Assembly (NCBI GenBank): GCA_964590575.1
Contig: CAZPWM010000016.1
Location: 1-48,431 of the forward strand
Direction of reading: 5' to 3'
From: an uncultured archaeon
GTDB lineage: Archaea; Asgardarchaeota; Thorarchaeia; Thorarchaeales; Thorarchaeaceae
DNA: 48,431 bases
Each line of letters begins with the position of its first letter. Position 1 is the stretch's first letter. Shown here piece by piece: positions 3,119 through 48,431 of this stretch. The position numbers and the translations under genes are program-made. Under the pieces are notes generated by a model. That model did no database searches. It saw only the letters and a list, made by a program, of their open reading frames with translations, and had not been told where the DNA came from.

Positions 3119-4606
3119 TTATGTTTCTTTTTGCGAATCTCTGTATAGTTTCTGGTAAACCTTGGATTTTTTTCCTTCTCTCTGGAGGCGAATGATGTAT
3201 TCCATTTCTTTCTGTAAGCGTATCTTACCTAATTCGGTCTTTTTAGCAATCCACTCTTTGCCATCTAACTTGTACCATTTCCAGAATGTGATTGCACTAA
3301 TTATGAAACATATTGCGGGAAATAGAGCGAACCCTAACTGTATTCCAAAGATTGCTGAATCTGATTGTACACTCTGGGTATTGTCAAACCCAAATCCACT
3401 AATGACCAGCAAGAATAGTGCGGTAGCTACTGATATTGCTGGTTTTGTAATCAGCGCATTCATGCCCGCATAGGTTGTTTCTCGTCTCTTTCCGGTCAAT
3501 ATCTCATCGTAATCGATTACATCAGACAATAACGGGGACCATATTAGTGTGACCGGGGCAAAACCTATTCCGATAACAACAAGACTGACCATCACTGCAA
3601 TCAACCAGTTACCCGATAGAAACAGCAGAATAAGACCCGCACTCGATAGTAGTAGTCCAATAATATAGACCTGTTTTAGACCTCGTTGTTTCACCATTCT
3701 ATCAGCAAGAAGACTAAACAACAGCATGAGGACAAAAATGACAATCAACGGTACAGATGCCAAAACCCCCTGTAACCTAACAACGTACTGTATGAAATAT
3801 ATCATGCAGCCAGTCACTACAGTAAATGCCATCTCGTGGAAGAAATTCATGGCTTCGAATGCAAGAAATTCCCTATTCTCGAGCGTCTTTACCATGGAAT
3901 CGATAAAGCCCAATGACTCTTCTGTCCTAGCATACTCGTTTTCTGTCAGGGCAAAACTCGAAGCGAATAGAACCGTCCCAGCAACTACTGAAACTAGTAC
4001 CATTACAGGCTGGAATAGAGGATTGAGCTCGGTTGATGTTTCATCCGTGAGCAGGATAAGCGGTAGCACCATCGCAAATAACGCACCAATTGAACCTAAA
4101 ATCACGTTGTATAGGCTGAGATTCGACCTTGCTTCTTGGGTGATGACCATTTCAGCTGGTAGCGCGGTTATGACTAATCCGACCATAGTGAACATAGAAT
4201 CGAATAAGAAGAGGACAAGTAGCAGATTCCAGAACAGAGATATTTGTGCGTTTCCCATAAAAGGGAACCAGCAGATGATAAAGGTAAGTGCATAAAATAG
4301 CGCACCATAACGCAAGACGGGGATGCGCCTGCCAATATCTGTATTGATCCTCTCTTGGAGGATGCCAAATAGAGGATCATTAATAGCATTCCAGAAGGCG
4401 AAAATTAGCCAAGCAAGAGAGATCCATTCTTCGCTTAGCCCTAGCTTGATATTAAAATAGAAAGTGATTGCGGAACCGAGAGCAATAACCTGGAGTAAAT
4501 TAATCGATGCTTGAGAAAGACCAAAGGCTATTTTTGACTTAACAGGTAAACGTTCATCGAAATCAACATTGAGGTCTTTTTTAGCGTCTTCGTCCATATC
4601 TGTCAT
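3119..4606 (-). CDS. MFS transporter, GPH/MelB-like family
   Basis: WNAINDPLFG...GRRIP and SDVIDYDEILTGKRRE motifs; about 12 TM helices. Confidence 0.9.
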   Translation of the reverse strand: MTDMDEDAKKDLNVDFDERLPVKSKIAFGLSQASINLLQVIALGSAITFYFNIKLGLSEEWISLAWLIFAFWNAINDPLFGILQERINTDIGRRIPVLRYGALFYALTFIICWFPFMGNAQISLFWNLLLVLFLFDSMFTMVGLVITALPAEMVITQEARSNLSLYNVILGSIGALFAMVLPLILLTDETSTELNPLFQPVMVLVSVVAGTVLFASSFALTENEYARTEESLGFIDSMVKTLENREFLAFEAMNFFHEMAFTVVTGCMIYFIQYVVRLQGVLASVPLIVIFVLMLLFSLLADRMVKQRGLKQVYIIGLLLSSAGLILLFLSGNWLIAVMVSLVVIGIGFAPVTLIWSPLLSDVIDYDEILTGKRRETTYAGMNALITKPAISVATALFLLVISGFGFDNTQSVQSDSAIFGIQLGFALFPAICFIISAITFWKWYKLDGKEWIAKKTELGKIRLQKEMEYIIRLQREGKKSKVYQKLYRDSQKET

Positions 4607-4779
4607 CTTGGATATTCTCTTAACCTACTATAGGAAACGTAAGATTATCGGAGATAAAAGTCAATTGAACTCCTATCGGAGTTTCTACATTTGGCATCAA
4701 TTTCGAGTATGGTCTATCTGGTTTCGTGTTGCAGCTCTGTTTCGCTAATCAATGAAAACTCGAGAATTCTTTCATAATT

Positions 4780-5211
4780 CTATATCCGTTTCTCGAGCAA
4801 CATCGCAACATCCTCAACAAACTTGGAGCAGTTCTTGAAGGCTCCTTTTTCGAAGGCTTTCTTCACATCTTCATCCGTTAGTAAATCATGGTTGATTAAT
4901 TCTCTACAGATAATTGACCCGTGAATTTTTACGAACTCATCTAGAAGATCTCTCGCTTCTTCATTGACTTTCGTAGAATCTGATCCACCGTATTTAAGTC
5001 CAAGTGACATCAATGCACCGTTTAAAGCTCCACAAATGTTTCCAGTATGAGCTACTCCACCACTGAATGCAGACGATATCTTCATGCATGTATCAAAGTC
5101 AACTTTTCCCTCACTCAGATACTCCCCAAAAGGGGCGAATATTGCTTGCGCACAGTGACCCTTTCTTTTATCCATGATTTCTTTTGCTTTATCAACGAGA
5201 TTTGATTGCAT
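4780..5211 (-). CDS. C_GCAxxG_C_C family putative redox protein
   Basis: HCAQAI, FSGG, ICGALNG, ICREL and NC motifs. Start placed at ATG 5211 (MQSNLV). Confidence 0.85.
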   Translation of the reverse strand: MQSNLVDKAKEIMDKRKGHCAQAIFAPFGEYLSEGKVDFDTCMKISSAFSGGVAHTGNICGALNGALMSLGLKYGGSDSTKVNEEARDLLDEFVKIHGSIICRELINHDLLTDEDVKKAFEKGAFKNCSKFVEDVAMLLEKRI

Positions 5212-5374
5212 AGCTTTTACCCAAGTTACTCCACATAAAAGAATGCTCCCTTGTAAAAATCTCAAACAATGGCAGACACTCAAGAATACATCCCTTTTAC
5301 CAACATCCTGCGTTGAAGTGTACAATTAAATCTCATTCTGAATGATTATTTTGGCATCAAGAAGGTGACCTTAT

Positions 5375-6319
5375 ATGAGGTGGAGAATGAGAGAGTTTCG
5401 CAGTCGAAAGATGCTAAGTGTATTTGTGCTGTCGATTCTGTATCTGATACTTTTTTCACCAGTACCATCCGTCGCTCAAGCCGAACATAGTGATCTGACT
5501 GGTGTCAAGGTTGCTATCTATAATGGAGCTGGTGTGATGTCTTCTAGTCGCATCGCTCTCACTATGATGTTTGAGTGGATGAATGCATCAGTTGCAGATG
5601 TTACAGCTGCTCAAATCATTGATGATACCCTTCATGACTATGACATTCTTGTTATTCCTGGTGGATCAGAAACCACTTGCAGCAGTGAACTTGATTCTGA
5701 AGGAAGAAAGAAGGTCAGGGATTTCATAGCGCAAGGTGGCTCGTACTTTGGGATCTGCGGTGGTGCGACCTTTGGAGCGACGTACTTACATTTAGCCAAT
5801 TGTATTATGAGTCCAGTGAATGAACCAGGTTCAATAATACACGTGACTACAATGAACCTTAACCAATCTTCTACTGGACCTGACCTCTCAGAACTCCCAG
5901 CGAATTTTACCACTATGTATTATGGATCTCAGTACTTTACTCCTCAATATGGAGCGTCCGTACATAAAATTGCGACTTACGATTATAATGACAAAGCCGG
6001 GATGATTGCGTGCAAATACGAGAACGGAACAGTCTTCCTCTCAAGCCCTCATCCTGAATATGAGGAAAATGGTGATAGAGATGGCACTGCATTTTATGAT
6101 TATCTCAATGATCCTGATTCGGAGTGGGACCTTCTCCTCAGGGTTTCAAAGTGGCTTATTGAAGCCTCCTATGTTGAACCAGTAGGTCCAACAACAACAC
6201 CCACTACCAACACCACTACAACCTTCACTCCTGATTTGCCTCTGGTTGCTATTGCTTCAACTGGAGGTGCTATAGTTGTATTGATAGTTGTTGCCCTTTA
6301 TCGGAGAATGCATAAATGA
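5375..6319 (+). CDS. Surface-anchored BPL-N / class I glutamine amidotransferase-like protein
   Basis: Signal peptide, VAIYNG, LVIPGG, YFGICGGA, SPHPE, Thr-rich linker, C-terminal TM followed by RRMHK. Confidence 0.8.
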   Translation: MRWRMREFRSRKMLSVFVLSILYLILFSPVPSVAQAEHSDLTGVKVAIYNGAGVMSSSRIALTMMFEWMNASVADVTAAQIIDDTLHDYDILVIPGGSETTCSSELDSEGRKKVRDFIAQGGSYFGICGGATFGATYLHLANCIMSPVNEPGSIIHVTTMNLNQSSTGPDLSELPANFTTMYYGSQYFTPQYGASVHKIATYDYNDKAGMIACKYENGTVFLSSPHPEYEENGDRDGTAFYDYLNDPDSEWDLLLRVSKWLIEASYVEPVGPTTTPTTNTTTTFTPDLPLVAIASTGGAIVVLIVVALYRRMHK

Positions 6320-7286: not shown

Positions 7287-7421
7287 TCCAGATTGAGTAA
7301 TATCTGAACTCCACGAATGTTCCAGGAAGAATAAATGCAAGAAAATGCGTTAGTGAACAAGTTTATGGTCACTGGGTTTCAGAATCGACTTAAGGCAGTA
7401 ACCACTCTTTGGGGAATCATC

Positions 7422-13207: not shown

Positions 13208-13272
13208 TTTAGGAGTTGAGATCACACTTCCTTCTGTCCAAAATGCATGCCATATTTGCCGACATCCTTAAA
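13208..13272 (+). repeat. tRNA-Cys upstream region (master repeat copy; includes TATA-like CCTTAAAA about 30 nt before the tRNA)
   Basis: Shared with 8407-8469, 12413-12436 and 7261-7286. Confidence 0.75.
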
Positions 13273-13301: not shown

Positions 13302-13377
13302 GCCGGTTTGGCGGAGAAGTTTACGCGACAGCCTGCAGAGCTGTTCTACCTGGGTGCAAATCCCAGAGCCGGCTCCA
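13302..13377 (+). tRNA. tRNA-Cys (GCA)
   Basis: Acceptor GCCGGTT/AGCCGGC; anticodon arm ACAGC-CTGCAGA-GCTGT (GCA at 13335-13337); T arm CTGGG-TGCAAAT-CCCAG; U discriminator; encoded CCA. Confidence 0.95.
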
Positions 13378-37142: not shown

Positions 37143-38120
37143 GTGGTGCAATCGATGGCTAGTGACAGCAAGGAACTGCAAGAGAAAATCCTCAAGCTAA
37201 AGAAAGAGCGAAAGGCTCTCATTCTTGCACATAACTACCAAGTCATCGAGATTCAAGAGATTGCTGACTTTGTAGGCGACTCTCTCCAACTTGCTCGGAA
37301 ATCAGCTGAAATTAAGGGGGTCGAGATGATTATCTTCGCAGGAGTGAAATTCATGGCTGAGATGGCAGCAATTCTTTCTCCCGCTATCCCAGTATACATT
37401 CCTGATCCCAAAGCACTCTGTCCTCTTGCTGGGTATCTTGATGCGGAGAAGATTCGTCAGAAGAAAAAAGAATATCCAGGAGTTCCAGTCATTGTATATG
37501 TGAATACCACTGCTGAAGCAAAATCAGAGGCTGATATGATATGCACTTCGGGAAGCGCAGTCGAAGTCGTGGAGTCTCTGGGAGTTAATAGAGTAATTTT
37601 TGGTCCTGATGCAAATCTAGCTGACTATGTGCGCTCTCATACCTCCGTGGAAATCATCGATATTGACAGATCAGGTCACTGCTATGTGCACAATATGTTT
37701 GATTTGAGCATGTTGATTGAATTGAAAGAAAAGTATCCTGACTCAGTCGCGATAGCTCATCCGGAATGCCCGATTGAAATACAAGAACAAGCTGATATGG
37801 TCGGGTCAACTGGGATGATGGCTCGAACGGTTGCAGAATCGGATGCAAAGGTGTTTATAATTGCCACAGAACTGGGAATGATTCAACAGTTGCAGAAACG
37901 GCACCCGGATAAGACCATCATACCCATGTATGATGGAGCTGTCTGTCGTCAGATGAAGAAGCACACACTAGAAAAGATACTGAATGTTCTTGAAAACCTA
38001 CCTCCTGAGAATATAGTCACTGTTCCAGATCCGTTTGTTCCACACGTACGTGAGATTCTTGAAAGGATGAACAAGGTTCGCGGTCAAGGTCCTGCTGTAC
38101 CTGTAGAGGCTCCTTCCTAA
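37143..38120 (+). CDS. nadA: Quinolinate synthase
   Basis: ILAHNYQ, DFVGDSLQL, GVKFMAE, YVNT, CTS, GHCYVH, AHPEC, GST, C..MK. Confidence 0.95.
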   Translation: MVQSMASDSKELQEKILKLKKERKALILAHNYQVIEIQEIADFVGDSLQLARKSAEIKGVEMIIFAGVKFMAEMAAILSPAIPVYIPDPKALCPLAGYLDAEKIRQKKKEYPGVPVIVYVNTTAEAKSEADMICTSGSAVEVVESLGVNRVIFGPDANLADYVRSHTSVEIIDIDRSGHCYVHNMFDLSMLIELKEKYPDSVAIAHPECPIEIQEQADMVGSTGMMARTVAESDAKVFIIATELGMIQQLQKRHPDKTIIPMYDGAVCRQMKKHTLEKILNVLENLPPENIVTVPDPFVPHVREILERMNKVRGQGPAVPVEAPS

Positions 38121-38171
38121 TAGTTACTATGCTGCCATGAAAACAAAGGTCTATATCCCTGATAGCATATA

Positions 38172-40415
38172 ATGATATCATCGTGGAGTGGAGACGCCTG
38201 GATGAGAAAATACGGTCTGAATATCACAAAGGAGCGTATTCTAACACTTTCAATAATCTCTATTGGGTATCTCCTAATTTCCGCAAATCAAGTCTTCATG
38301 AATCCTCCAGTGACTCAATCTGGACTACTTACGTATGAATATACTACACCCATAAATCAGACAGCTAATCATACTGTAATCAAAGAGTCGCTAACATCGA
38401 CAAACTGGGTGCTAATTCAAAATTTTACTCATTATAAGAACTACAACTACTTCCAGATACCCTTCCATGATTATGACCTTGTTGTGTTCAATCTAACCCT
38501 AGAACCCATCAGTGGTGAAAAGGAAGTTCAATTCAGAATATTCCTTGGTGGAGGTGATCCTGAGATTTTCCAAACAATATCAAATCGAACGACTCTTACT
38601 CTTGAGACCGATTTGGCCAATGTGAAGAGTGAACGAGCGGGCTATTGGGTTTTAGATGTAGTTCCCTCAGTGAGTCCAATAGAAGAATTCACTATTCATT
38701 GTCTTGAAGTCTGGGCTTACTCCAGTATCCCACTATGTCCAGTAACTGTCGACATACGATCAACAGATAATGCGAGTCTCTTTGACAATATTTTGCTTGA
38801 AAAATTGGCATACTTTCGTCCAGTGCTAGTACTCTCACTTGAAAACACTAGTTATACAATTGGTAAGCTCTATCCACATACTGCTAATTATTCATACTAT
38901 CTTCGCCCTACCAGGTTAGTCGGTTACGTGGAGTGGAGTTCGATAGCAGGAAGATCCGATATTGAGGTGGACATTGAGGAAAACGAGACTATCTATTGGA
39001 TAATCAATCTCGAATCAGTAAGAATCGATTTGAGTATTGATGTAGATTATCCGTTATATCGGATCAATTGCTTCACAGGTGATACGGTAATCTACGATAT
39101 GTATCTCACTCCCTCTCAGATGCCTGCATCCTTCTACATTCCTTCAATCTATATGGATTTTAGAATATCCTTGGTCAAACTTCTTGACAATAGGTATTCC
39201 AGTCTTATGGACAATCTCTTCTTGGCAGAGAGTATCTTAGATGTGAATGGAACAGCGAATATCCATATTGATGTAGCTTTCAACCATCTATTTGTATTGG
39301 GCCATTATACGATTCTTCACATCATCATCTCCGTGCTTGTGATGTCGCTATTCTTGATTGTTCTTGCGAGACTGTTTCTATATCTTCGAAGCAAATGGCC
39401 AGAATCAAAAAAACGGATAGTTATCGATTTCAGATTGTTCCCAATAGTTCTATTTTGTATTCTTGCTCTTGTTCCATGGTTCTTTTCAACCAGGGTATTC
39501 CATCCTTTTTGGACTGATGATGCTGTTCTAATACATAGCGTATCTCTAGGGCCTCTTCCTATTATGGGTATTTGGACTGAGGGAAGTCCTATCTTTCTTG
39601 CGATACCCAGTCAAGCAATTGAATGGTTCTTCTGGTCTATAATCCTATATTGGCTGCCACTCTTATGGTGCCTGCTCTTCCTTACTACTCCTAGTTACCG
39701 TGGAAATGATTTGTTGATGGGGCTTATCCTATTCGGTCCCGCAATTTTCGGTCTATTTTGGAGCACTCTTTTACCAAATATAACTGATAGTCCAACAATG
39801 TTCTCATTTGCGAATTTCTTAGCTCTCTCTATTCCGATATCATGGTTAATCGGAATCTCGTTAATTAGGAAATACTACGTATTTGGGTTAAATTTTGACA
39901 AACTCAAACGGGATGAACAAAGTTCCAAGGAATTTGAAAAGAGCCCTAAGGTTAGCGATAAATCATATACGCATGACATATTCTTTAGTTTGCAGTTCTA
40001 CTTGTTTGTTATCCTCACTTTATTTACTCCATGCCTTGTTGGTTTCTACTCTAATATTTATTCTACTGAACGTATCTTTGTTGTTAATCCCGTTCAAGTT
40101 ATTTACTACATCATTCCTGACTATGGATATCTTACATATCAGAAACTGGGAGCACTTCTTGTTGGGATTCCCTATGCCATATTTACTATTTTTGCTTTGA
40201 TCTGGGTTTGGCAATGGATGAATGAACAAAAATCGATTATCTGGATCTTCGTTGGAACAGCTATCAGTATTCTTTCAATGTCACCTGGTTTCGCTATTCT
40301 TAGTTTATACTCGGGATGGGGATGGACAATTACATGGGTGCCCATTCCAATAGTCATTGTCTTGATGTTATTGTTTTCCTTTGCTGTTTTGTTACGTGAA
40401 GAGGCTGATTCTTGA
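38172..40415 (+). CDS. Large membrane protein (extracellular beta-rich domain plus multi-TM C-terminus)
   Basis: N-terminal TM, many NxS/T sequons, about 9 C-terminal TMs. Paralog of 44713..46440 (PWFFSTR...GPLP...WT...YWLPL). Confidence 0.75.
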   Translation: MISSWSGDAWMRKYGLNITKERILTLSIISIGYLLISANQVFMNPPVTQSGLLTYEYTTPINQTANHTVIKESLTSTNWVLIQNFTHYKNYNYFQIPFHDYDLVVFNLTLEPISGEKEVQFRIFLGGGDPEIFQTISNRTTLTLETDLANVKSERAGYWVLDVVPSVSPIEEFTIHCLEVWAYSSIPLCPVTVDIRSTDNASLFDNILLEKLAYFRPVLVLSLENTSYTIGKLYPHTANYSYYLRPTRLVGYVEWSSIAGRSDIEVDIEENETIYWIINLESVRIDLSIDVDYPLYRINCFTGDTVIYDMYLTPSQMPASFYIPSIYMDFRISLVKLLDNRYSSLMDNLFLAESILDVNGTANIHIDVAFNHLFVLGHYTILHIIISVLVMSLFLIVLARLFLYLRSKWPESKKRIVIDFRLFPIVLFCILALVPWFFSTRVFHPFWTDDAVLIHSVSLGPLPIMGIWTEGSPIFLAIPSQAIEWFFWSIILYWLPLLWCLLFLTTPSYRGNDLLMGLILFGPAIFGLFWSTLLPNITDSPTMFSFANFLALSIPISWLIGISLIRKYYVFGLNFDKLKRDEQSSKEFEKSPKVSDKSYTHDIFFSLQFYLFVILTLFTPCLVGFYSNIYSTERIFVVNPVQVIYYIIPDYGYLTYQKLGALLVGIPYAIFTIFALIWVWQWMNEQKSIIWIFVGTAISILSMSPGFAILSLYSGWGWTITWVPIPIVIVLMLLFSFAVLLREEADS

Positions 40416-40612
40416 TATTTCACTCATGCTCGATTGGTTATGCCAAATAAACCTAATATCCAGCAGCTCAGATAGATAGGAAATAATGTACTCCCTATGT
40501 CCTGCCTAGTAGTAACTCTAGCTATCAAATATACTAACTATACCACTAAAATCACAAAAGTCAATGGATCTATCAAAGTCTTAATGAATTCCTGAAACAA
40601 TAGGTGACGTAA

Positions 40613-41269
40613 TTATGATTGGACACTAATAATCTCCAAGAGATCCGATAAAGATGTAATCAATTGCTCCTTATGCCCTGCATTTCTAAAATCCTGCTCA
40701 CTGAACAGACCAACACGACCAATGAAATCACAGATGCCTCGTGCTCGTTCATAATCTTTCAAGGAATCCCCAATAAACACCATGTCATAGAAACTCAAAT
40801 TGTACTTTTCATGAATATAGTTGAAGTGGTGAACTCCCTTTTCAAATCCTGGTCTGTAACCCAAGATGCTTTTGAAAAGCCCTTTGATTTCCCGTCGCTC
40901 GAAGTACTCCTCTATAATGGGTTGAAAAGTGGATGAAGATACGAAGATATCAAGACCCATCTCCTTGAGCCTTTTGACAACGCCTACGGTATCTGGAAAG
41001 AGATCTTGTTCAAAGATTCGTTCTATCTTCAGTTGTTCAAACTCTGCAATTGCAGCTTCGTTTCTTAGGTCATCTGGAAAATTCATTTTTATCTGGTGTT
41101 CGTATGGTAACCCAGTAGTAGTCACATAGCGTTTAGTTGCATCTTCCTTCGAAACCCCAAAATGCTTCATCATTATTTCGACGCCGATACTCTGCAGGAA
41201 TGGCATACTATCAGCAAGTGTGCCATCGAAATCGAAAATGACTGCACGACAGGGTATCTTATCCGCCAT
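40613..41269 (-). CDS. HAD family hydrolase
   Basis: IFDFDGTLADS, VSSS, K, FIGDSLKD. Confidence 0.9.
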   Translation of the reverse strand: MADKIPCRAVIFDFDGTLADSMPFLQSIGVEIMMKHFGVSKEDATKRYVTTTGLPYEHQIKMNFPDDLRNEAAIAEFEQLKIERIFEQDLFPDTVGVVKRLKEMGLDIFVSSSTFQPIIEEYFERREIKGLFKSILGYRPGFEKGVHHFNYIHEKYNLSFYDMVFIGDSLKDYERARGICDFIGRVGLFSEQDFRNAGHKEQLITSLSDLLEIISVQS

Positions 41270-42578: not shown

Positions 42579-43745
42579 ATGATGAAGCTCAAGATTTGGC
42601 AGATGGTTTATCTCATTGGATTCATAATTATCGTTGGCCTCCTCTTACTACAGTTAGTAGGCTTACATTTGGGAGAATATCCCCTTGCCATTGCCGAACT
42701 GTTTGGCGGAATCTTACTGATTGGTGGTGCCTGTGAAGCATTTGTCATTTCAGTTGAGGGTATTGCACATAACTACAAGATGACTGACTATGTGTCTGGT
42801 ATCTATGCAAGTCTTGCAAGTACTATCCCGGAGCTCTCGGTAATTGCTTTTCTTTTACTTGGAGGAAAATATGAATTAGCCTGGGTCCTTGCGCTCGCAA
42901 CTATTTTCATGAACTCGCTTGTATTTGCAGTATATACTCTAATCTTGCCAAAGGATGAAAACGGGAACTACAGGCTTCCTGATGCTATAAACTGGGTTGG
43001 TAGTGAACTGCTCAGCATGGGTGCTGTAATCAGCCTCTCGGTGGGCCTCTCAATGTTGATGGTCTTCGTGTTCGCTATTGAGAATCCATTACTGCCGAGA
43101 CATCTTGAAGCGGGAGAGCTATTTGTTTTTGGAGGGGCGCTTCTAGGAGTTTTCATTGCATATCTATACTGGATAACAAAGTATTATGGAAAAGTAGATG
43201 CTGAGAAGGATACTAAACTTGAGGGTCGTATTCAGAAACATCCCATGACCAGAAAGAAACTCGTGGTCTACATCATTTTTGCTTCCCTTGGAGCACTCCT
43301 TGGAGGCGAAGCACTCTCAGGGTTCGCGCATTTTGCTACAGAAACATTGCACCTTTCTTTTATCCATGCAGCCCTGTTGCTAGTGATATTTGGCGGAACC
43401 CCTGAGTATATCATTGTGGCAAGCAGCCACAGAAAAGACCAGTTAGAAGTTGCACTATCTAATGCATTTGGAGGTATTGTGCAGGTCTTTTTTGTGATCT
43501 TTGGATTCACATTAGTAGCTGCTGGGGTCTCATCCACATTAGCTGGAGTTACTCAAGTAATTCCAATAGACCTCTTCTCAGTGGTCTTACTTTTCTTTGC
43601 ATTTCCTTCGATGTTCATCCTTCGTGTAATAATAACTGACGACTCAAGTGTGAATGCCTTAGAATCGATATCGATGATTGCAGTCTTCATCATGATGCTC
43701 TACATTCTTCTAATGTGGGGGATCTATCCTATCCCAACTGGTTGA
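42579..43745 (+). CDS. Ca2+/cation antiporter (CaCA/NCX superfamily)
   Basis: Two alpha-repeats: ASLASTIPEL and GGTPEY; 10-11 TMs. Confidence 0.82.
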   Translation: MMKLKIWQMVYLIGFIIIVGLLLLQLVGLHLGEYPLAIAELFGGILLIGGACEAFVISVEGIAHNYKMTDYVSGIYASLASTIPELSVIAFLLLGGKYELAWVLALATIFMNSLVFAVYTLILPKDENGNYRLPDAINWVGSELLSMGAVISLSVGLSMLMVFVFAIENPLLPRHLEAGELFVFGGALLGVFIAYLYWITKYYGKVDAEKDTKLEGRIQKHPMTRKKLVVYIIFASLGALLGGEALSGFAHFATETLHLSFIHAALLLVIFGGTPEYIIVASSHRKDQLEVALSNAFGGIVQVFFVIFGFTLVAAGVSSTLAGVTQVIPIDLFSVVLLFFAFPSMFILRVIITDDSSVNALESISMIAVFIMMLYILLMWGIYPIPTG

Positions 43746-43787: not shown

Positions 43788-44024
43788 TCAATAGTGACGA
43801 TACTCACCTAAAGTCTGAACCTTAATGATGCACTCAATGCTAACGAATTCATCGGCATCCTCAGTGTCACCGTGCTTTAGACCGACGATGTCCTCACCAA
43901 CAAATGCTACGCGTCCTTCAGCAATGATCATCATTCCTGGTCCATAGAATCTTATCCGATCTCCCGACTTGGCGGCATCAAGTAAAACACTCCGCAGGGT
44001 CGCATCCTTCACGAAATCCGACAT
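43788..44024 (-). CDS. Small hypothetical protein (possible Sm/SH3-like beta barrel)
   Basis: Helix then beta strands: RIRFY, IAEGRVAFVGEDIVGL, EFVSIECIIKV. Confidence 0.6.
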   Translation of the reverse strand: MSDFVKDATLRSVLLDAAKSGDRIRFYGPGMMIIAEGRVAFVGEDIVGLKHGDTEDADEFVSIECIIKVQTLGEYRHY

Positions 44025-44160: not shown

Positions 44161-44436
44161 ATGAAGTATATCATGTTCTGGGAATACGATCCTGCAGATC
44201 ATAATGTCGTGATGGACAAGTTGAAGGAGTTCCGAGGCATCGTTAAAAAGAATCCTAACCAACATGCAAAGTTCATCTCGAAGAACTATGCGATGGTTGA
44301 TGGACCTGAGGGCTTTCAGCTTGTGGAGACTGAGAATCCTGAACACCTTGTCAAGATTACCCGGCATTACCTTCCAGAAGTCAGTTTTAGATTCGCACCT
44401 ATTGTTGAACTTGAAAAAGTCGACCAGAAGGTCTAA
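44161..44436 (+). CDS. DUF3303-like small protein
   Basis: MKYIMFWE...GFQLVETENPEHL...FRFAPIVE. Start placed at ATG 44161. Confidence 0.7.
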   Translation: MKYIMFWEYDPADHNVVMDKLKEFRGIVKKNPNQHAKFISKNYAMVDGPEGFQLVETENPEHLVKITRHYLPEVSFRFAPIVELEKVDQKV

Positions 44437-44458
44437 TAATCAAAAGTGTTGCATATAC

Positions 44459-44654
44459 GAAAAGAGGAAAGCGGTGCATCCCCATAGGAGATGCTCCGAC
44501 TCTCGACATTAAATGATTCCTTCTTGCTTTCCGACCCCTCATAGGCCGCTAGTGCAATGTCTAGCTGCTCCTTGGTCAGACCTGAGTTCATCATGTTTCG
44601 GATTCTGGCCTTGTCACGTGCTACCATCGGGAACACAATGGATGATGCGAGGAT
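44459..44654 (-). pseudogene. Relic 1 of the kbl-type gene 3' end plus terminator
   Basis: 44509-44654 matches 47766-47912: IVFPMVARDKARIRNMMNSGLTKEQLDIALAAYE-(1-nt deletion)-VGKQEGII*. Hairpin 44472-44498 and pyrimidine tail on the minus strand. Confidence 0.92.
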
Positions 44655-44712
44655 TATTTTTGAATCTAAATATCTATAACTCTTCATATTCGAGTTTGTG
44701 TTGTGATGGGCG

Positions 44713-46440
44713 ATGAATAGAGGAGAGCTTCTTTCGAAACTAGAGAAGTCAAAATTCGATCTCGCACTATTAATCATTGTTTTTCTTCTGATATTTTCAA
44801 GTCAGATTCTTACTACACAACTGCTCCGTGGTTATGGTACAATTATAGTTACAGATGGTGCTGCAATTCCACAGGAGAGTAACTACACAATATCAACAGA
44901 ATTTAGTACATCAGTTACAACCGCAGTGGTGTTCAATTATACTCTGGATAAGTACTCTGGAGTATCTTTCAATGTGATTACAGATAATGTTAGTAGATTT
45001 TGCTTCAATATAACACTACAATCTACCCAGAACAATACAGATGTTAATGTATTAGTTGGTCTAGGTTACAGAGAAACATTCGACATTATGGTTGGAACAA
45101 CCCCCACTATTGTTTCGCTTGAGCTAAATATGACCGCTGTTCATTCGAATCCTGGGAATTGGATCCAGCCATGTCGTGTTCTCTTCACGACTGATGTTCC
45201 ACTCGAATTCAAGAATGTCCTTTTATGGGCTGAATTTGATACTCCTGTTTCTCCTGTTATCTTGAATTGGCAGTCGACAGATGGAAACCCCTTATTTGCC
45301 AATCCTTACACATCACAGCTAGGTACATTCAGACCTGAACTCGGAATAAAACGTCAGAATGATAGTTTTTATGATAGTTTTGATGCATTCTTTCAGAATC
45401 GCACATTATACCTACGACCACAGAATTATAGTATGAGAGCTACCTGGGGAGGTGATATTTCTTCTATTCCTGAATTCTATCTATCCATCACTGAGAATTC
45501 TTCGACAATCTGTACCTTGAGAATGAAAGCTGTGAGATTATCCTTCTCAATTGATCAGAAGATACCTTTGATCCATCTGCAGATTATGACTCGGGATTTT
45601 CCTTCCTATTATATCTATAATCTTTACTTTCAAGATTCAGAAAAACCAGAATTCTTGTTTATTCCTCCCATTTATGATGGTATATCGATATGGTTCGATT
45701 CAATGGATCCGCTTTCAAGTAATTTGAGATGGTACGCGGATTGTGGGGCACTTAAAAGCATTCCAGCAAATGGTACATATCATCAGAATATCAAAATCCA
45801 GATGCCTTACTGGTACTTCTTTGGATTTATTGTCACTCAGCTAGATTTCATCCACTTGTCAGTAGCGATGATTCTGTTTTCACTTGTTATTATCAGGACT
45901 TATATCTATCTCAGTCAAAAGAAACCTAGAGGTTCTTGGCGAAACCCTCATTTCATTCCGGCAATCATCTTAGGCTTAACTACCTTCATGCCTTGGTTTT
46001 ATAGCATCCGTGAAACGGTGAATGTTTTCGATACAACAATCCATGTTGCAGCATTTGGTACCTTTCCACTTGTCACGAGCTGGACTGATTCAGGAATTGT
46101 CTTCTTAGACATACCTCCTAGCGGAATCTACTGGGCAATCTTGTCTTTGTTCATGTTCTGGTTTCCATTGATTTGCTTCATATATGGAGCGACTCCTACC
46201 AGGGATTATGAAAAGGAAGCATCAATACTTTTGTTCCTACCATATCTATACCTAATCGCTCTAGAGATTGGACTTGGTAAGCTTTACACGTTTGCATTTG
46301 ACCAAAATTCAGTCATCCCAGTTCTATCCCTATTGATTCCATCACTTACAGTCTCTTACTTAATCCTGAAAGAGTTGATGGATTACGTGAAAAAAGAAAA
46401 AGTGGTGGGCACCTCACAAGACGGTGCTCCACGGCAGTAA
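44713..46440 (+). CDS. Large membrane protein, paralog of 38172..40415 (shorter C-terminus)
   Basis: Shared motifs (SPVILNWQSTDG vs CPVTVDIRSTDN; YLRP; PWFYSIR; GTFP..WT; FWFPL). Confidence 0.78.
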   Translation: MNRGELLSKLEKSKFDLALLIIVFLLIFSSQILTTQLLRGYGTIIVTDGAAIPQESNYTISTEFSTSVTTAVVFNYTLDKYSGVSFNVITDNVSRFCFNITLQSTQNNTDVNVLVGLGYRETFDIMVGTTPTIVSLELNMTAVHSNPGNWIQPCRVLFTTDVPLEFKNVLLWAEFDTPVSPVILNWQSTDGNPLFANPYTSQLGTFRPELGIKRQNDSFYDSFDAFFQNRTLYLRPQNYSMRATWGGDISSIPEFYLSITENSSTICTLRMKAVRLSFSIDQKIPLIHLQIMTRDFPSYYIYNLYFQDSEKPEFLFIPPIYDGISIWFDSMDPLSSNLRWYADCGALKSIPANGTYHQNIKIQMPYWYFFGFIVTQLDFIHLSVAMILFSLVIIRTYIYLSQKKPRGSWRNPHFIPAIILGLTTFMPWFYSIRETVNVFDTTIHVAAFGTFPLVTSWTDSGIVFLDIPPSGIYWAILSLFMFWFPLICFIYGATPTRDYEKEASILLFLPYLYLIALEIGLGKLYTFAFDQNSVIPVLSLLIPSLTVSYLILKELMDYVKKEKVVGTSQDGAPRQ

Positions 46441-46540
46441 TTTATATGATTTTGATTCGTTTTCCAACCTTCTCATAGGCAGCCAGAGCAATGTCTAGCA
46501 GCTCCTTGGTCAGACTAGAGTTCATCCTGTTTCTGATTCT
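46390..46540 (-). pseudogene. Relic 2 of the kbl-type gene 3' end plus terminator
   Basis: 46442-46540 reads RIRNRMNSSLTKELLDIALAAYEKVGKRIKII*. Hairpin ~46402-46432, shared CAGTAAT spacer and T-rich tail. Confidence 0.9.
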
Positions 46541-46656
46541 AGTGAAAGGGCTTCCTACGGATTTGTTATCATAGTCTAGAATATGTATTGCACTGCCATT
46601 TCTTGCGCGAATCTAAATCTCTTTTTATTGATACTAGTTTGACAAGTTGGGTGGAA

Positions 46657-47580
46657 ATGACGCACAGGGAAAGTGGGTCGCTATTAAGCATATTTCTGGT
46701 TATCACGATCGTTGTAGCTCTATCGTATATACCATCTGTTTCCGCTACTGGAACTTCTCAGGATACACGAGATGGATGGGCTGCCATAATGGAGATCAAC
46801 TATTATCCAGAGGGCTGGACAGACATACCCACCAATTATAATGACACACAAAGGTGGGTGGACACACTAAAAACTCTTGGTTGGCAAGAGAGTCATATAC
46901 TGATTGTGAATGAAGCATTTGATCTGGCACAAGTAGTAGAGGCTATTCAATTTCTCATCGATAATACTGACGAGAACGATATTGCACTCCTGTTCATGGC
47001 TGCTCATGGAATGTGGCTGAATAATACAATTGCCCAAAATGATACATTTGTAGACACATGGGAAGAAATCCCTAGTCAGAACAAATTGCTATATATCGAT
47101 TCATGTATAGCTGGAAGATTCACAGAACTGGTTGCGGATGATCCTAATCCTGAGATTGCTATCTCGGCTGTTGGTGCAAATGAATACTCTTGGGCTGGTC
47201 TTGAGGAGGAAGGACTTCCCATAATAGGATCTGTATGGAACTACTTCTTCACAAATGCATTACTCAATATCTCTGCTGATACAGATTCAAATGGTGATGT
47301 GAGTGTAGAGGAAGCGTATGATTTTGCATACCCCCCCACACGCGCATATTATGAAGATTATGTATATCCCTATTCCTCTGAAATAAAACAATTGAACAAC
47401 TTTGTAGCACCTACCCCAGGAATGGACGACAACTACGAAGGAGAGCTTTCACTTCGATTAGAAAGCGCTGCACCGCTTACTGAACCGGTAATGGGCTTTG
47501 ATCTGGGATTTGTAGCTATTCTAGCATTTGCGGGGGTAGTGGTTGTTCTTATTGCAGTTGTTTTAGCAAAGAAACGATGA
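46657..47580 (+). CDS. Surface-anchored caspase-like (clan CD) cysteine peptidase
   Basis: Signal peptide, LLFMAAHG and YIDSCIAG His/Cys dyad, ADTDSNGDVSVEEAY, C-terminal TM followed by KKR. Confidence 0.78.
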   Translation: MTHRESGSLLSIFLVITIVVALSYIPSVSATGTSQDTRDGWAAIMEINYYPEGWTDIPTNYNDTQRWVDTLKTLGWQESHILIVNEAFDLAQVVEAIQFLIDNTDENDIALLFMAAHGMWLNNTIAQNDTFVDTWEEIPSQNKLLYIDSCIAGRFTELVADDPNPEIAISAVGANEYSWAGLEEEGLPIIGSVWNYFFTNALLNISADTDSNGDVSVEEAYDFAYPPTRAYYEDYVYPYSSEIKQLNNFVAPTPGMDDNYEGELSLRLESAAPLTEPVMGFDLGFVAILAFAGVVVVLIAVVLAKKR

Positions 47581-47717
47581 CATCTCTTCTAGATTTAATA
47601 GTTCAGATTAGCTATCTTTGATTAGTTTGAAACCATAACTATACGATGAGCCGTCGCCCCAATACCAGCTAGTGTACTGGTATAGACTCCTTACTGCTAC
47701 TTACTAATTTAAAGGGT

Positions 47718-47753
47718 AAAAACGAGAAGAGGACATCTCGATTTGAGATGTCC
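47718..47753 (-). terminator. Terminator hairpin of the kbl-type gene
   Basis: Perfect stem GGACATCTC-GATTT-GAGATGTCC (47731-47753) followed on the minus strand by TCTTCTCGTTTTT. Confidence 0.7.
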
Positions 47754-47765
47754 AACAGTAATCTT

Positions 47766-48431
47766 CTAAATGATTCCTACTTTCTGTCCGACCTTCTCGT
47801 AAGCTGCTAGAGCAATGTCTAGCTGCTTCTTGGTCAGACCGGAGTTCATCATATTACGAATCCTTGCCTTGTCACGTGCCACCATCGGGAACACGATCGG
47901 CAACGCGAGGATGCCTTCATTGTATAGACCATCGCTGAGAGCTACAGCCTTTGAGCTCTCTCCTGTCATTGCTGGAATGATAGGTGTCTGACTGTTTCCA
48001 GTATCAAAGCCCATTTGTTGGAGCCCCTTGACAAAATACTCCCGGTTCTCCCACAGGGTCTTAACATGTTCCTCTTCATTTTCAAGAATATCAATAGCTG
48101 CGATGCAAGCAGCCGCTGTAGCTGGCGGATGTGAAGCGCTGAGAAGCCAAGAACGGCTCTTGTTCAGAGCATAGTTTACCATATCACGACTGCCTGACAC
48201 ATGACCTCCCATGACCCCGAAGGCTTTTGAGAAAGTGCCCATCTCGAAATGAACATCATGATGAGTGAGGTTGAAGTGTGAAACGATACCTCTACCACCT
48301 TTGCCAAGCACTGCTTCACCGTGGGCATCATCCACATAGATCATTGCGCCATGTGGTTTTGCTGCTTTGACAATCCCATCGAGAGGTGCAATGTCTCCAT
48401 CCATGCTGAAGACTCCGTCAGTGATGACGAG
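47766..48431 (-). CDS. PLP-dependent alpha-oxoamine synthase (glycine C-acetyltransferase Kbl / BioF-like), 5'-partial
   Basis: TDGVFSMDGDIAPL, YVDDAHG, GTFSKAFG (PLP Lys), TPIIP, ARIR. Confidence 0.92.
   Translation of the reverse strand, partial: LVITDGVFSMDGDIAPLDGIVKAAKPHGAMIYVDDAHGEAVLGKGGRGIVSHFNLTHHDVHFEMGTFSKAFGVMGGHVSGSRDMVNYALNKSRSWLLSASHPPATAAACIAAIDILENEEEHVKTLWENREYFVKGLQQMGFDTGNSQTPIIPAMTGESSKAVALSDGLYNEGILALPIVFPMVARDKARIRNMMNSGLTKKQLDIALAAYEKVGQKVGII

Follow-up and report, generated by a model that had tools for sequence, protein, structure and literature searches.

The uncultured Thorarchaeaceae genome G000 (GenBank assembly GCA_964590575.1; 3.4 Mb, 194 contigs, 91% complete) carries a gene of the BioF/Kbl family, here called kbl, whose 3' end is followed by two displaced kbl ends and two inserted genes. 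The DNA analyzed, referred to as the window, is the whole contig G000:C16 (CAZPWM010000016.1; 48,431 nt). Comparison with related loci showed that modules composed of a kbl end, its terminator and a convergent cargo gene in all likelihood entered at the kbl end one after the other, the module with the membrane protein gene mem575 first and that with the caspase-like peptidase gene C14 second. It is considered fairly probable that this array arose by sequential displacement of gene ends through a homology-driven process and not through a dedicated integrase. The same signature was found at further genes of G000 and of related genomes, and the finding broadens from kbl to what is, by these comparisons, evidently a genome-wide and genus-wide process.

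The gene order claimed in a preliminary description of this DNA, with two kbl 3' relics interposed between accessory genes, was borne out by open reading frames (ORFs), a Pfam scan and blastn: DUF3303 gene (+), relic 1, mem575 (+), relic 2, C14 (+) and kbl (-). The features of the locus are the following.

43788..44024, minus strand: p78, a conserved backbone gene of 78 amino acids (aa), located 58-196 nt from the kbl stop in genomes with an empty site
44161..44436, plus strand: DUF3303 gene, convergent with kbl (Pfam PF11746, 41.5 bits)
44448..44513, minus strand: hairpin and T-rich tract after the relic 1 stop (fold and alignment)
44510..44655, minus strand: relic 1, a 5'-truncated kbl allele of which the final 146 nt are left (blastn; profile positions 56-202)
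44656..44712, plus strand: upstream region of mem575, carrying GAATCTAAATATCT at 44662-44675
44713..46440, plus strand: mem575, cargo gene 1, encoding a 575-aa membrane protein (ORF; no family match)
46384..46444, minus strand: hairpin and T-tract after the relic 2 stop (fold and alignments)
46443..46539, minus strand: relic 2, a kbl allele reduced to its final ~97 nt (blastn; profile positions 103-202)
46540..46656, plus strand: upstream region of C14, carrying GAATCTAAATCTCT at 46609-46622
46588..47580, plus strand: C14, cargo gene 2, encoding a caspase-like peptidase (start TTG 46588 or ATG 46657)
47706..47768, minus strand: terminator hairpin and T-tract of live kbl (stem-loop 47731-47753)
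47766..48431, minus strand: live kbl, C-terminal 221 codons and stop (Pfam Aminotran_1_2, 122.6 bits, above the cut-off)

The N-terminal 189 codons of kbl are located on contig C177 (positions 3-569). The full-length ortholog of G016 scored 500 bits against TIGR01825 (cut-off 535) and 451 bits against the glycine C-acetyltransferase model NF005394 (cut-off 460). Judged by these models, the live gene clearly belongs to the BioF/Kbl family of pyridoxal phosphate-dependent acyltransferases, and the scores do not fix whether the activity is that of Kbl or of BioF.

When the kbl part of the window was compared with the whole genome by blastn, relic 1 (44510-44654, 146 aligned nt, 84.2% identity, one gap) and relic 2 (46463-46526, 64 nt, 85.9%) were found, and no further kbl copy was present on any of the 194 contigs. 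An nhmmer profile built from 53 live kbl 3' ends extended the matches to 44510-44655 (E 1e-37) and 46443-46542 (E 1e-21). Thus, both cargo genes are flanked by direct repeats (97 and 146 nt) containing the target gene's 3' end. The retention of a stop codon in each relic, as claimed earlier, was confirmed in part: TAA stands at the homologous position in both, in frame in relic 2 and out of frame in relic 1 through a 1-nt deletion 28 nt upstream.

Codon differences were counted by the method of Nei and Gojobori. Within its 33-codon core, relic 1 is separated from the live end by 11 synonymous changes and 1 nonsynonymous change (22.8 synonymous and 76.2 nonsynonymous sites). The earlier manual count of 12 and 1 in 34 codons was therefore right as to the synonymous bias and not as to the exact figures. 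Over all 47 alignable codons, 15 synonymous and 6 nonsynonymous changes were counted, and relic 2 differs from the live end by 13.5 synonymous and 10.5 nonsynonymous changes in 32 codons. By our own arithmetic, the neutral probability of at most one nonsynonymous change among the 12 in the core of relic 1 is near 1e-6. Since 11 of these changes are synonymous, relic 1 evidently derives from a kbl allele that was once under selection, in agreement with the earlier proposal that it is the end of a once-functional divergent allele and not a decayed local duplicate. That the relics arose by local partial duplication at the kbl 3' end and subsequent decay, with no connection to gene gain, is hardly credible. 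Slippage or unequal crossing-over can produce short diverged direct repeats, and the nonsynonymous share in relic 2 is fairly high, but the codon pattern of relic 1, the orthology of relic 2 to live ends elsewhere and the co-occurrence of relics with inserted genes, both described below, contradict this origin.

Folding of the three ends confirmed that each relic has a hairpin of its own. The minimum was -18.5 kcal/mol (z -4.7) after live kbl, -22.6 kcal/mol (z -3.3) after relic 1 and -16.4 kcal/mol (z -2.8) after relic 2. By alignment, the relic 1 hairpin belongs in one class with the terminators that follow live kbl in G016 and G020. The relic 2 terminator is orthologous to that of live kbl in the metagenome loci L148 and L137, the latter of which shows a compensatory change in the stem.

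The order of events was read from loci that hold the predicted intermediate, i.e., kbl, a membrane protein gene and one relic, and three related sequences are of this kind (L148, L137 and X6). L148 and L137 have no C14 gene; in each, kbl is accompanied by a mem575 homolog (72-73% identity) and a single relic. The live kbl end, the hairpin and the mem575 3' end of both loci correspond base for base to relic 2 and its surroundings. The third, a Logan contig (X6 record 29), matches 46155-46539 with 12 differences and then continues as in-frame kbl coding sequence, which reads FPMVARDKA in hand translation. Since this contig runs on as kbl coding sequence, the C14 junction is placed at 46539/46540. 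The sequence of relic 2 is thus the live end in intermediates without C14, which supports the earlier claim that the newest cassette lies nearest to kbl.

Related genomes showed the displacement at other stages. G018 has the order DUF3303, relic, C14, kbl; its left junction is that of relic 2 (profile position 103), and the terminator of its relic differs from that of relic 2, being of the type found beside DUF3303 in uninterrupted genomes. The live end of G024, in which the site is empty, is matched in G015 by the relic together with the flank downstream of it, and the live end of G015 differs over its last ~20 nt. Together with L148, L137 and X6, G015 supports the proposal that incoming DNA with a cargo gene, a kbl 3' end and a terminator pushed the older end outward. 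The left junction of relic 1 (44655/44656) is common to the window, L148 and L137, and that of relic 2 (46539/46540) to the window and G018. Across loci, the relics start at four kbl profile positions (56/57, 103, 110 and 128).

The kbl border itself is composite. The kbl of the window is 95-100% identical to that of G016 in nucleotide sequence over most of the compared region up to the stop and 88% identical in the first 60-nt bin, and the sequences are unrelated beyond the stop. With G018, the next 60 nt (counted from 5 nt before the stop codon ends) share 90% identity and the coding part only 75-93%. Recombinational exchange at the kbl border thus appears to be ongoing, and the alleles at this locus are best read as mosaic.

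The state of the site was compared among relatives. The backbone order in 17 genomes of the same genus that contain kbl is Na/Ca exchanger, p78, kbl. The p78-kbl interval was empty in four of them (92-172 nt), contained only DUF3303 in five and other genes without a relic in six, and held an inserted gene with a kbl relic in two (G018 and G015). Among 33 informative metagenome loci, 19 were empty, four contained DUF3303 only, five had a 1.3-kb or 2.9-kb insert without a relic, two showed a different gene order and three had a relic, one of these being from the population of the window itself. A profile search of 165 sequences detected a relic in eight, the live end only in 153 and nothing in four. 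The eight relic sequences correspond to six distinct loci: the window (the same as L078), G018, G015 (the same as the L151 contig), L094, L137 and L148. The gene set at this site is hence not invariant among relatives, and further relic-bearing loci exist. A large inserted gene lies between the live end and the relic at all six distinct loci, and no kbl relic was found at empty or DUF3303-only loci of the classified sets.

DUF3303 is the commonest sole occupant of the site; it stands beside kbl in five of the 17 genus genomes and is absent from some others. No relic belonging to DUF3303 or to the relic-less insertions was found at E<0.01 with the nhmmer profile. Since DUF3303 has no relic of its own and adjoins kbl variably, it is not a demonstrated cassette, and its place in the cassette array, as initially described, was not upheld.

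The Na/Ca exchanger of the backbone (window 42579-43745) and its orthologs fall into two allele classes, with 82-89% as against 58-75% amino-acid identity. Because the neighbouring genes do not split into classes likewise, this suggests that the exchanger allele may have been replaced by recombination.

The array is not an assembly artefact. The public metagenome contig L078 is 100% identical to the window across kbl, C14, relic 2 and mem575, and the relic 2 junctions are spanned, with no difference, by Logan contigs from three runs (X1 record 6, X2 record 11 and X4 record 20). Relic 1 is covered by X1 record 3 and X2 record 10, the latter continuing into mem575. A chimeric assembly of co-occurring strains that made false kbl-end repeats has next to no probability. 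It would be in keeping with the contig end inside kbl (48431), with similar breaks inside kbl in G004, G012, G018 and G022, and with the only stretch at the relic 1 hairpin left uncovered by the short Logan contigs (44425-44449 in X1, 44422-44462 in X2). However, the array was reproduced by the independent assemblies just named, and analogous arrays of diverged sequence were found at five other loci of other genomes or metagenome samples. The two halves of the G000 kbl, which lie on different contigs, are unequally similar to G016 (N-terminal half 90%, C-terminal half 98% identity); either co-occurring alleles or a breakpoint of recombination may be the reason.

Gene-end relics are not confined to kbl. 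A self-comparison of G000 yielded 93 direct-repeat pairs of 45-400 nt located less than 12 kb apart; repeats longer than 400 nt were tandem paralogs or internal repeats and not relics of gene ends. In 18 of the 93 pairs, exactly one copy lay in an ORF of at least 180 aa, and these collapsed to 16 genes. Copies of a 3' end had the relic downstream in nine genes and upstream in none, copies of a 5' end had the relic upstream in three genes and downstream in one, and internal copies had the relic downstream in three. The nine genes with 3'-end relics are the following.

C16, 44510-44655 and 46443-46539: kbl, two relics
C7, 48638-48701: methylmalonyl-CoA mutase, relic with an internal stop
C44, 1801-1865 and 3985-4035: NrdD, two relics
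C45, 16442-16577: 227-aa protein
C56, 7660-7724: 379-aa protein
C62, 14689-14762: ChsH2-like protein
C67, 10905-10995 and 11922-12151: 517-aa protein, two relics
C98, 1069-1134: 189-aa protein
C175, 1-110: AFOR

The homology stops at most 7 nt from the stop codon in seven of the nine genes, and 21, 42 and 61 nt from it in the cases on C56, C98 and C175. Most relics whose alignments reach the stop keep one at the homologous place. Many of the cargo ORFs start with a hydrophobic, signal-like stretch, and those scanned include beta-helix/NosD-type proteins; in the single-cargo cases scanned, the cargo is convergent with the live gene. A mirror case was found on C47, where an 88-aa N-terminal relic (72%, 319-654) is followed by a 1080-aa cargo ORF on the opposite strand and the live gene (4244-5464).

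Related genomes show the same signature. In G014, a HAD gene and its convergent neighbour both have 3' relics, which abut at 7365/7366 (L037 7226-7632); these abutting relics are the former junction, which now has cargo on both sides. C-terminal fragments of the ChsH2-like gene occur in several genus genomes. In G001 (C10 4962-33032; L278 and L279), a complete ChsH2-like copy is followed downstream by three C-terminal fragments on one strand within 27 kb. The ten ORFs scanned in this array include a HerA-like ATPase, an HNH/NUMOD3 nuclease, and TPR, NosD-type and LVIVD-repeat proteins, with no integrase among them, and the HerA-like ATPase beside the HNH/NUMOD3 nuclease is possibly a defence module. 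One 261-aa gene is present twice in the G001 array. With the relic signature at nine genes of one genome and at others in relatives, the earlier view of kbl as a special site, comparable to an attachment site or an integron, did not hold.

The comparisons above establish that gene ends were displaced, in what order this happened and that genes other than kbl are affected; from them we infer the enzymology. Twice, a piece consisting of a kbl 3' end, its terminator and one convergent surface-protein gene with its promoter would have entered the 3' end of kbl by recombination. On each occasion, the enzyme gene would have stayed intact, and its previous 3' end would have been shunted downstream as a 5'-truncated relic. 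The mem575 module came first; the C14 module, entering second, trimmed the former live end to ~97 nt. The incoming DNA, a fragment or a small circle with a gene end on it, may recombine with the resident gene by a single crossover of the Campbell type, and homology-anchored illegitimate joining is an alternative for the founding event. A double crossover of a linear piece (gene end, cargo, relic), both arms of which match the target gene, would give the same product. Once bracketed by a live end and a relic, the cassette could spread between lineages through ordinary homologous recombination, since both of its flanks are homologous to any naive kbl. That the relics are gene ends on the outer side may be explained by selection, which would keep only insertions that leave the gene intact. 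In favour of such a homology-driven process are the four relic start positions, the many unrelated genes involved, including 5' ends, the lack of an element backbone and the mosaic alleles. With junctions at four kbl positions, nothing shows the site-specific recombination proposed earlier, and homologous recombination accounts for the relic pattern at least as well.

The search for recombinases bears on this question. G000 gave no match to the tyrosine recombinase, Y1 transposase, DDE_Tnp_1, Cas1, rve and TniQ families (PF00589, PF01797, PF01609, PF01867, PF00665 and PF06527), and control genomes matched every recombinase family scanned, with all TniQ matches below the cut-off. One small serine resolvase (C123) and 15 TnpB-like genes were detected in G000, none of them on C16. 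The statement that the window contains no recombinase was thus confirmed, and the genome search added none apart from this resolvase. Tyrosine recombinases were found in eight of 28 genus genomes, mostly on small contigs, with the relic-bearing G018 and G015 among the eight. The other 20 had no detected tyrosine recombinase, and a XerA-type enzyme seems to be absent or too diverged to detect. The 15 TnpB-like genes of G000 are not accompanied by a Y1 transposase. Neither an integrase nor an integrase fragment was found in the six distinct kbl arrays, and no kbl fragment was found at E<=10 on 15 integrase-bearing loci of relatives (101.6 kb). Self-comparison of six integrase-bearing loci (L062-L067) for flanking gene-end repeats showed none that was relevant. 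IMG/VR held no relative of kbl, of the degenerate kbl 3'-end motif, of the C14 protein or of mem575. An integron head is lacking, as the array is headed by kbl and G000 has no PF00589 match. Insertion of the Tn7 type is not indicated either: PF00665 and PF06527 are without match, and the duplicated ends measure 97-146 nt, not ~5 bp as in a target-site duplication.

These data were weighed against site-specific accretion, in which non-autonomous elements of the CIME type (cis-mobilizable elements) with the kbl 3' end as attP would have been integrated by a tyrosine or serine recombinase acting in trans, the enzyme being absent from G000 or unbinned. This appears unlikely, though it deserves serious consideration. 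The newest copy lies beside the gene, and genomes have the left junction in common; both are hallmarks of attL/attR and of tandem accretion (PMC5704250). The tyrosine recombinases of the eight genus genomes and the resolvase on C123 could supply the enzyme. Bracketing placed the inferred crossovers in the final ~50 nt of kbl, ~5-27 nt ahead of the stop in the window and 20-50 nt ahead of it in G015, within a conserved block near the stop. However, G000 has no PF00589 match, no integrase or fragment was found in the six kbl arrays or among the ten scanned ORFs of the G001 array, and no kbl fragment was seen on the 15 integrase loci or in IMG/VR. Nine target genes in one genome, together with 5'-end relics, would demand many specificities, and the homology starts at four different points.

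A second enzymatic explanation is an unrecognised recombinase acting on the stop-proximal hairpins, comparable to a dedicated cassette system with attC sites. A hairpin follows every live end and relic, its sequence varies while the fold is kept, and one compensatory pair distinguishes the window from L137. Furthermore, the motif GAATCTAAAT(A/C)TCT at 44662-44675 and 46609-46622 is common to both cargo genes, 34-37 nt before their ATG, and this 14-nt motif has no other exact copy in the 3.4-Mb genome. Yet the hairpins also occur at empty sites and, with T-tracts behind them, resemble ordinary terminators. The motif is weakly significant (24 of 2000 shuffles reach its score), with the pattern defined from the same two sites, and it is not found upstream of other cargo genes. 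No candidate enzyme was found in or beside the kbl array of the window, or in the kbl arrays of L094, L137 and G015. Such a system was therefore regarded as very improbable. The motif could be a promoter element; as a recombination site it was not adopted, in view of the weak shuffle significance and its derivation from two sites.

Several points weigh against the homology-driven process. Six of the eight genus genomes with an insertion other than DUF3303 at the site have no relic, and relic-forming events are therefore a minority route. The excess of gene-end relics was judged against the 5' and internal classes of G000 alone. The homologous pieces are short (75-147 nt) and now 77-90% identical, which makes them a poor substrate unless their identity was higher earlier. 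The left junctions recur across contexts (window, L148 and L137; window and G018), as would equally be expected of a mobile unit bearing an attP, and the conserved block near the stop in which the crossovers fall could be a recombinase core and not merely the best-conserved stretch. No joint indicating circles, excised forms or a restored empty site was present in Logan contigs, contigs and not reads having been examined. Finally, G000 is 91% complete in 194 contigs, and integrases are often located on unbinned mobile contigs.

The array was compared with known systems. It resembles the displacement of C-terminal ends in Rhs genes, also seen as orphan modules of contact-dependent inhibition and other polymorphic toxins, where an intact gene is followed downstream by dissociated pieces, each opening with a stretch, of variable length, from the gene's conserved part. 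In Rhs arrays, newer pieces shunt older ones downstream, no integrase is involved and spread occurs by recombination (PMC2935791); homologous recombination with small circular intermediates and core fragments of variable length has been proposed (Jackson et al. 2009, PMC2935791). Unlike Rhs, where a variable toxin tip and an immunity gene are displaced, the end of an invariant metabolic enzyme is here replaced like for like. The novelty lies in separate convergent surface-protein genes, the host is an Asgard archaeon and not an enterobacterium, and many unrelated genes of one genome show the pattern. The cargo genes mem575 and C14 match no toxin or immunity family, and the displaced end is the conserved C-terminus of kbl. 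In the type VI secretion (T6SS) arrays of Vibrio cholerae, successive insertions beside a conserved upstream gene likewise push older genes outward (PMC5361080). Homology-facilitated illegitimate recombination, with a homologous anchor at one side and illegitimate joining at the other, followed by array transfer through homologous recombination, was put forward for these arrays (Kirchberger et al. 2017, PMC5361080), and the authors, who found no integrase, compare them explicitly with integrons (PMC5361080). The T6SS cargo differs in consisting of effector-immunity pairs retained for immunity (PMC5361080).

Tandem accretion of CIMEs and integrative elements at the 3' ends of protein genes shares two features with the kbl array, as described in the part of the source cited: integrase-less decayed elements persist between att sites, and the newcomer integrates beside the target gene (PMC5704250). 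In contrast, it depends on a site-specific integrase and on an att core that is fixed; neither was found here, and the present cassettes are single genes without an element backbone, with relics of 5' ends too. Tycheposon islands at Prochlorococcus tRNA genes are similar in that newcomers push older elements inward, that partial target copies are scattered in the island and that the cargo is niche-adaptive (10.1101/2020.12.28.424599). They differ in their tRNA targets, tyrosine recombinases and fragmented integrase remnants (10.1101/2020.12.28.424599), and no integrase remnants were found here. With integrons the array shares a linear series of promoter-proximal single-gene cassettes, the newest nearest to the insertion point; the hairpin that accompanies each cassette recalls integron sites but resembles a terminator. 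The array differs in having no IntI or attI and no apparent attC consensus, in using the end of a coding gene as its site and in that each cargo gene has its own upstream region. Elements integrating at tRNA are reported by Wu et al. 2022 (PMC8813620), and nrdD and tRNA att sites by a Tn7 preprint (10.1101/2025.07.27.667033). No description of relic arrays at protein-gene ends in Asgard archaea was found in the parts of the literature covered.

Integrases at tRNA genes, or replacement via flanking homology, are the usual explanations of where accessory genes land. This uncultured Asgard lineage appears to show a third, additive route at ordinary housekeeping genes, with stacked, datable gene-end relics and no recombinase found. 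If the process is homology-driven, it would explain how surface and defence genes are gained in integrase-poor genomes, and a 5'-truncated gene end downstream of an intact copy would be a signature of recent gains in metagenome-assembled genomes. The displacement principle of Rhs and T6SS loci would then extend from bacterial toxin genes to archaeal core metabolism genes. More tentatively, with somewhat less than even chances, Thorarchaeota, and perhaps Asgard archaea more widely, build additive islands without integrases, gene ends serving as landing pads, the relic as a portable second homology arm and the module being self-sufficient, in need of nothing but homologous recombination, and able to move between species. 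Were this true, surface-protein genes would be gained by a general route whose traces are datable fossil gene ends. For annotators, gene-end relics call for caution, as they break assemblies and risk being miscalled as pseudogenes.

The mem575 protein is hydrophobic in an N-terminal stretch and in its C-terminal third, and it contains many N-x-S/T sites. No Pfam or NCBIfam match and no usable ESM Atlas match were obtained, and a pattern method applied to one genome per species yielded no relatives. Homologs with 50-73% identity adjoin kbl in G006, G015, L137 and L148. The last ~20 codons of mem575 (46384-46440) are antisense to the hairpin and T-tract of relic 2, i.e., the ORF ends inside the displaced terminator, and the homologs of G006 and G015 align only over the first 532-553 of the 575 residues. 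A 747-aa paralog of mem575 (26% identity) is located at 38121-40612 of the window, between a 325-aa gene (37143-38120) and a HAD gene (40613-41269); it is present in some relatives and absent in others, marking a second variable spot. The abutting 3' relics of G014 described above belong to the two convergent genes that flank this spot.

The C14 protein has hydrophobic stretches at both ends. It scored 21.3 bits against Pfam Peptidase_C14 (PF00656), just under the cut-off of 21.4, and 26.9 bits, below the cut-off, against the NCBIfam caspase domain. Its translation shows AAHG and DSC motifs, which are candidates for the His/Cys catalytic dyad. Homologs were found only in G018 (87%) and G023 (75%), so that the gene is present in three of the 28 genus genomes, G000 included. 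The homolog in G023 stands in a different context without a kbl fragment, which hints at a possible chromosomal source copy.

Other repeats were observed in G000. In the window, two pairs of diverged direct repeats (7061-7177/11594-11711, 77%; 8407-8469/13208-13270, 83%) are spaced ~4.5-4.8 kb apart, and the pair ending at 13270 stops just before the only tRNA gene of the window, tRNA-Cys (13302-13377). Five exact 55-nt repeats spaced 101 nt, on contigs C20, C56, C107, C129 and C148, look like assembler artefacts. On C13 (15342-42805), two tandem giant ORFs of 5176 and 3977 aa with internal repeats were found; tandem giant genes in Thorarchaeota are mentioned in the part of Wu et al. 2022 consulted here (PMC8813620).

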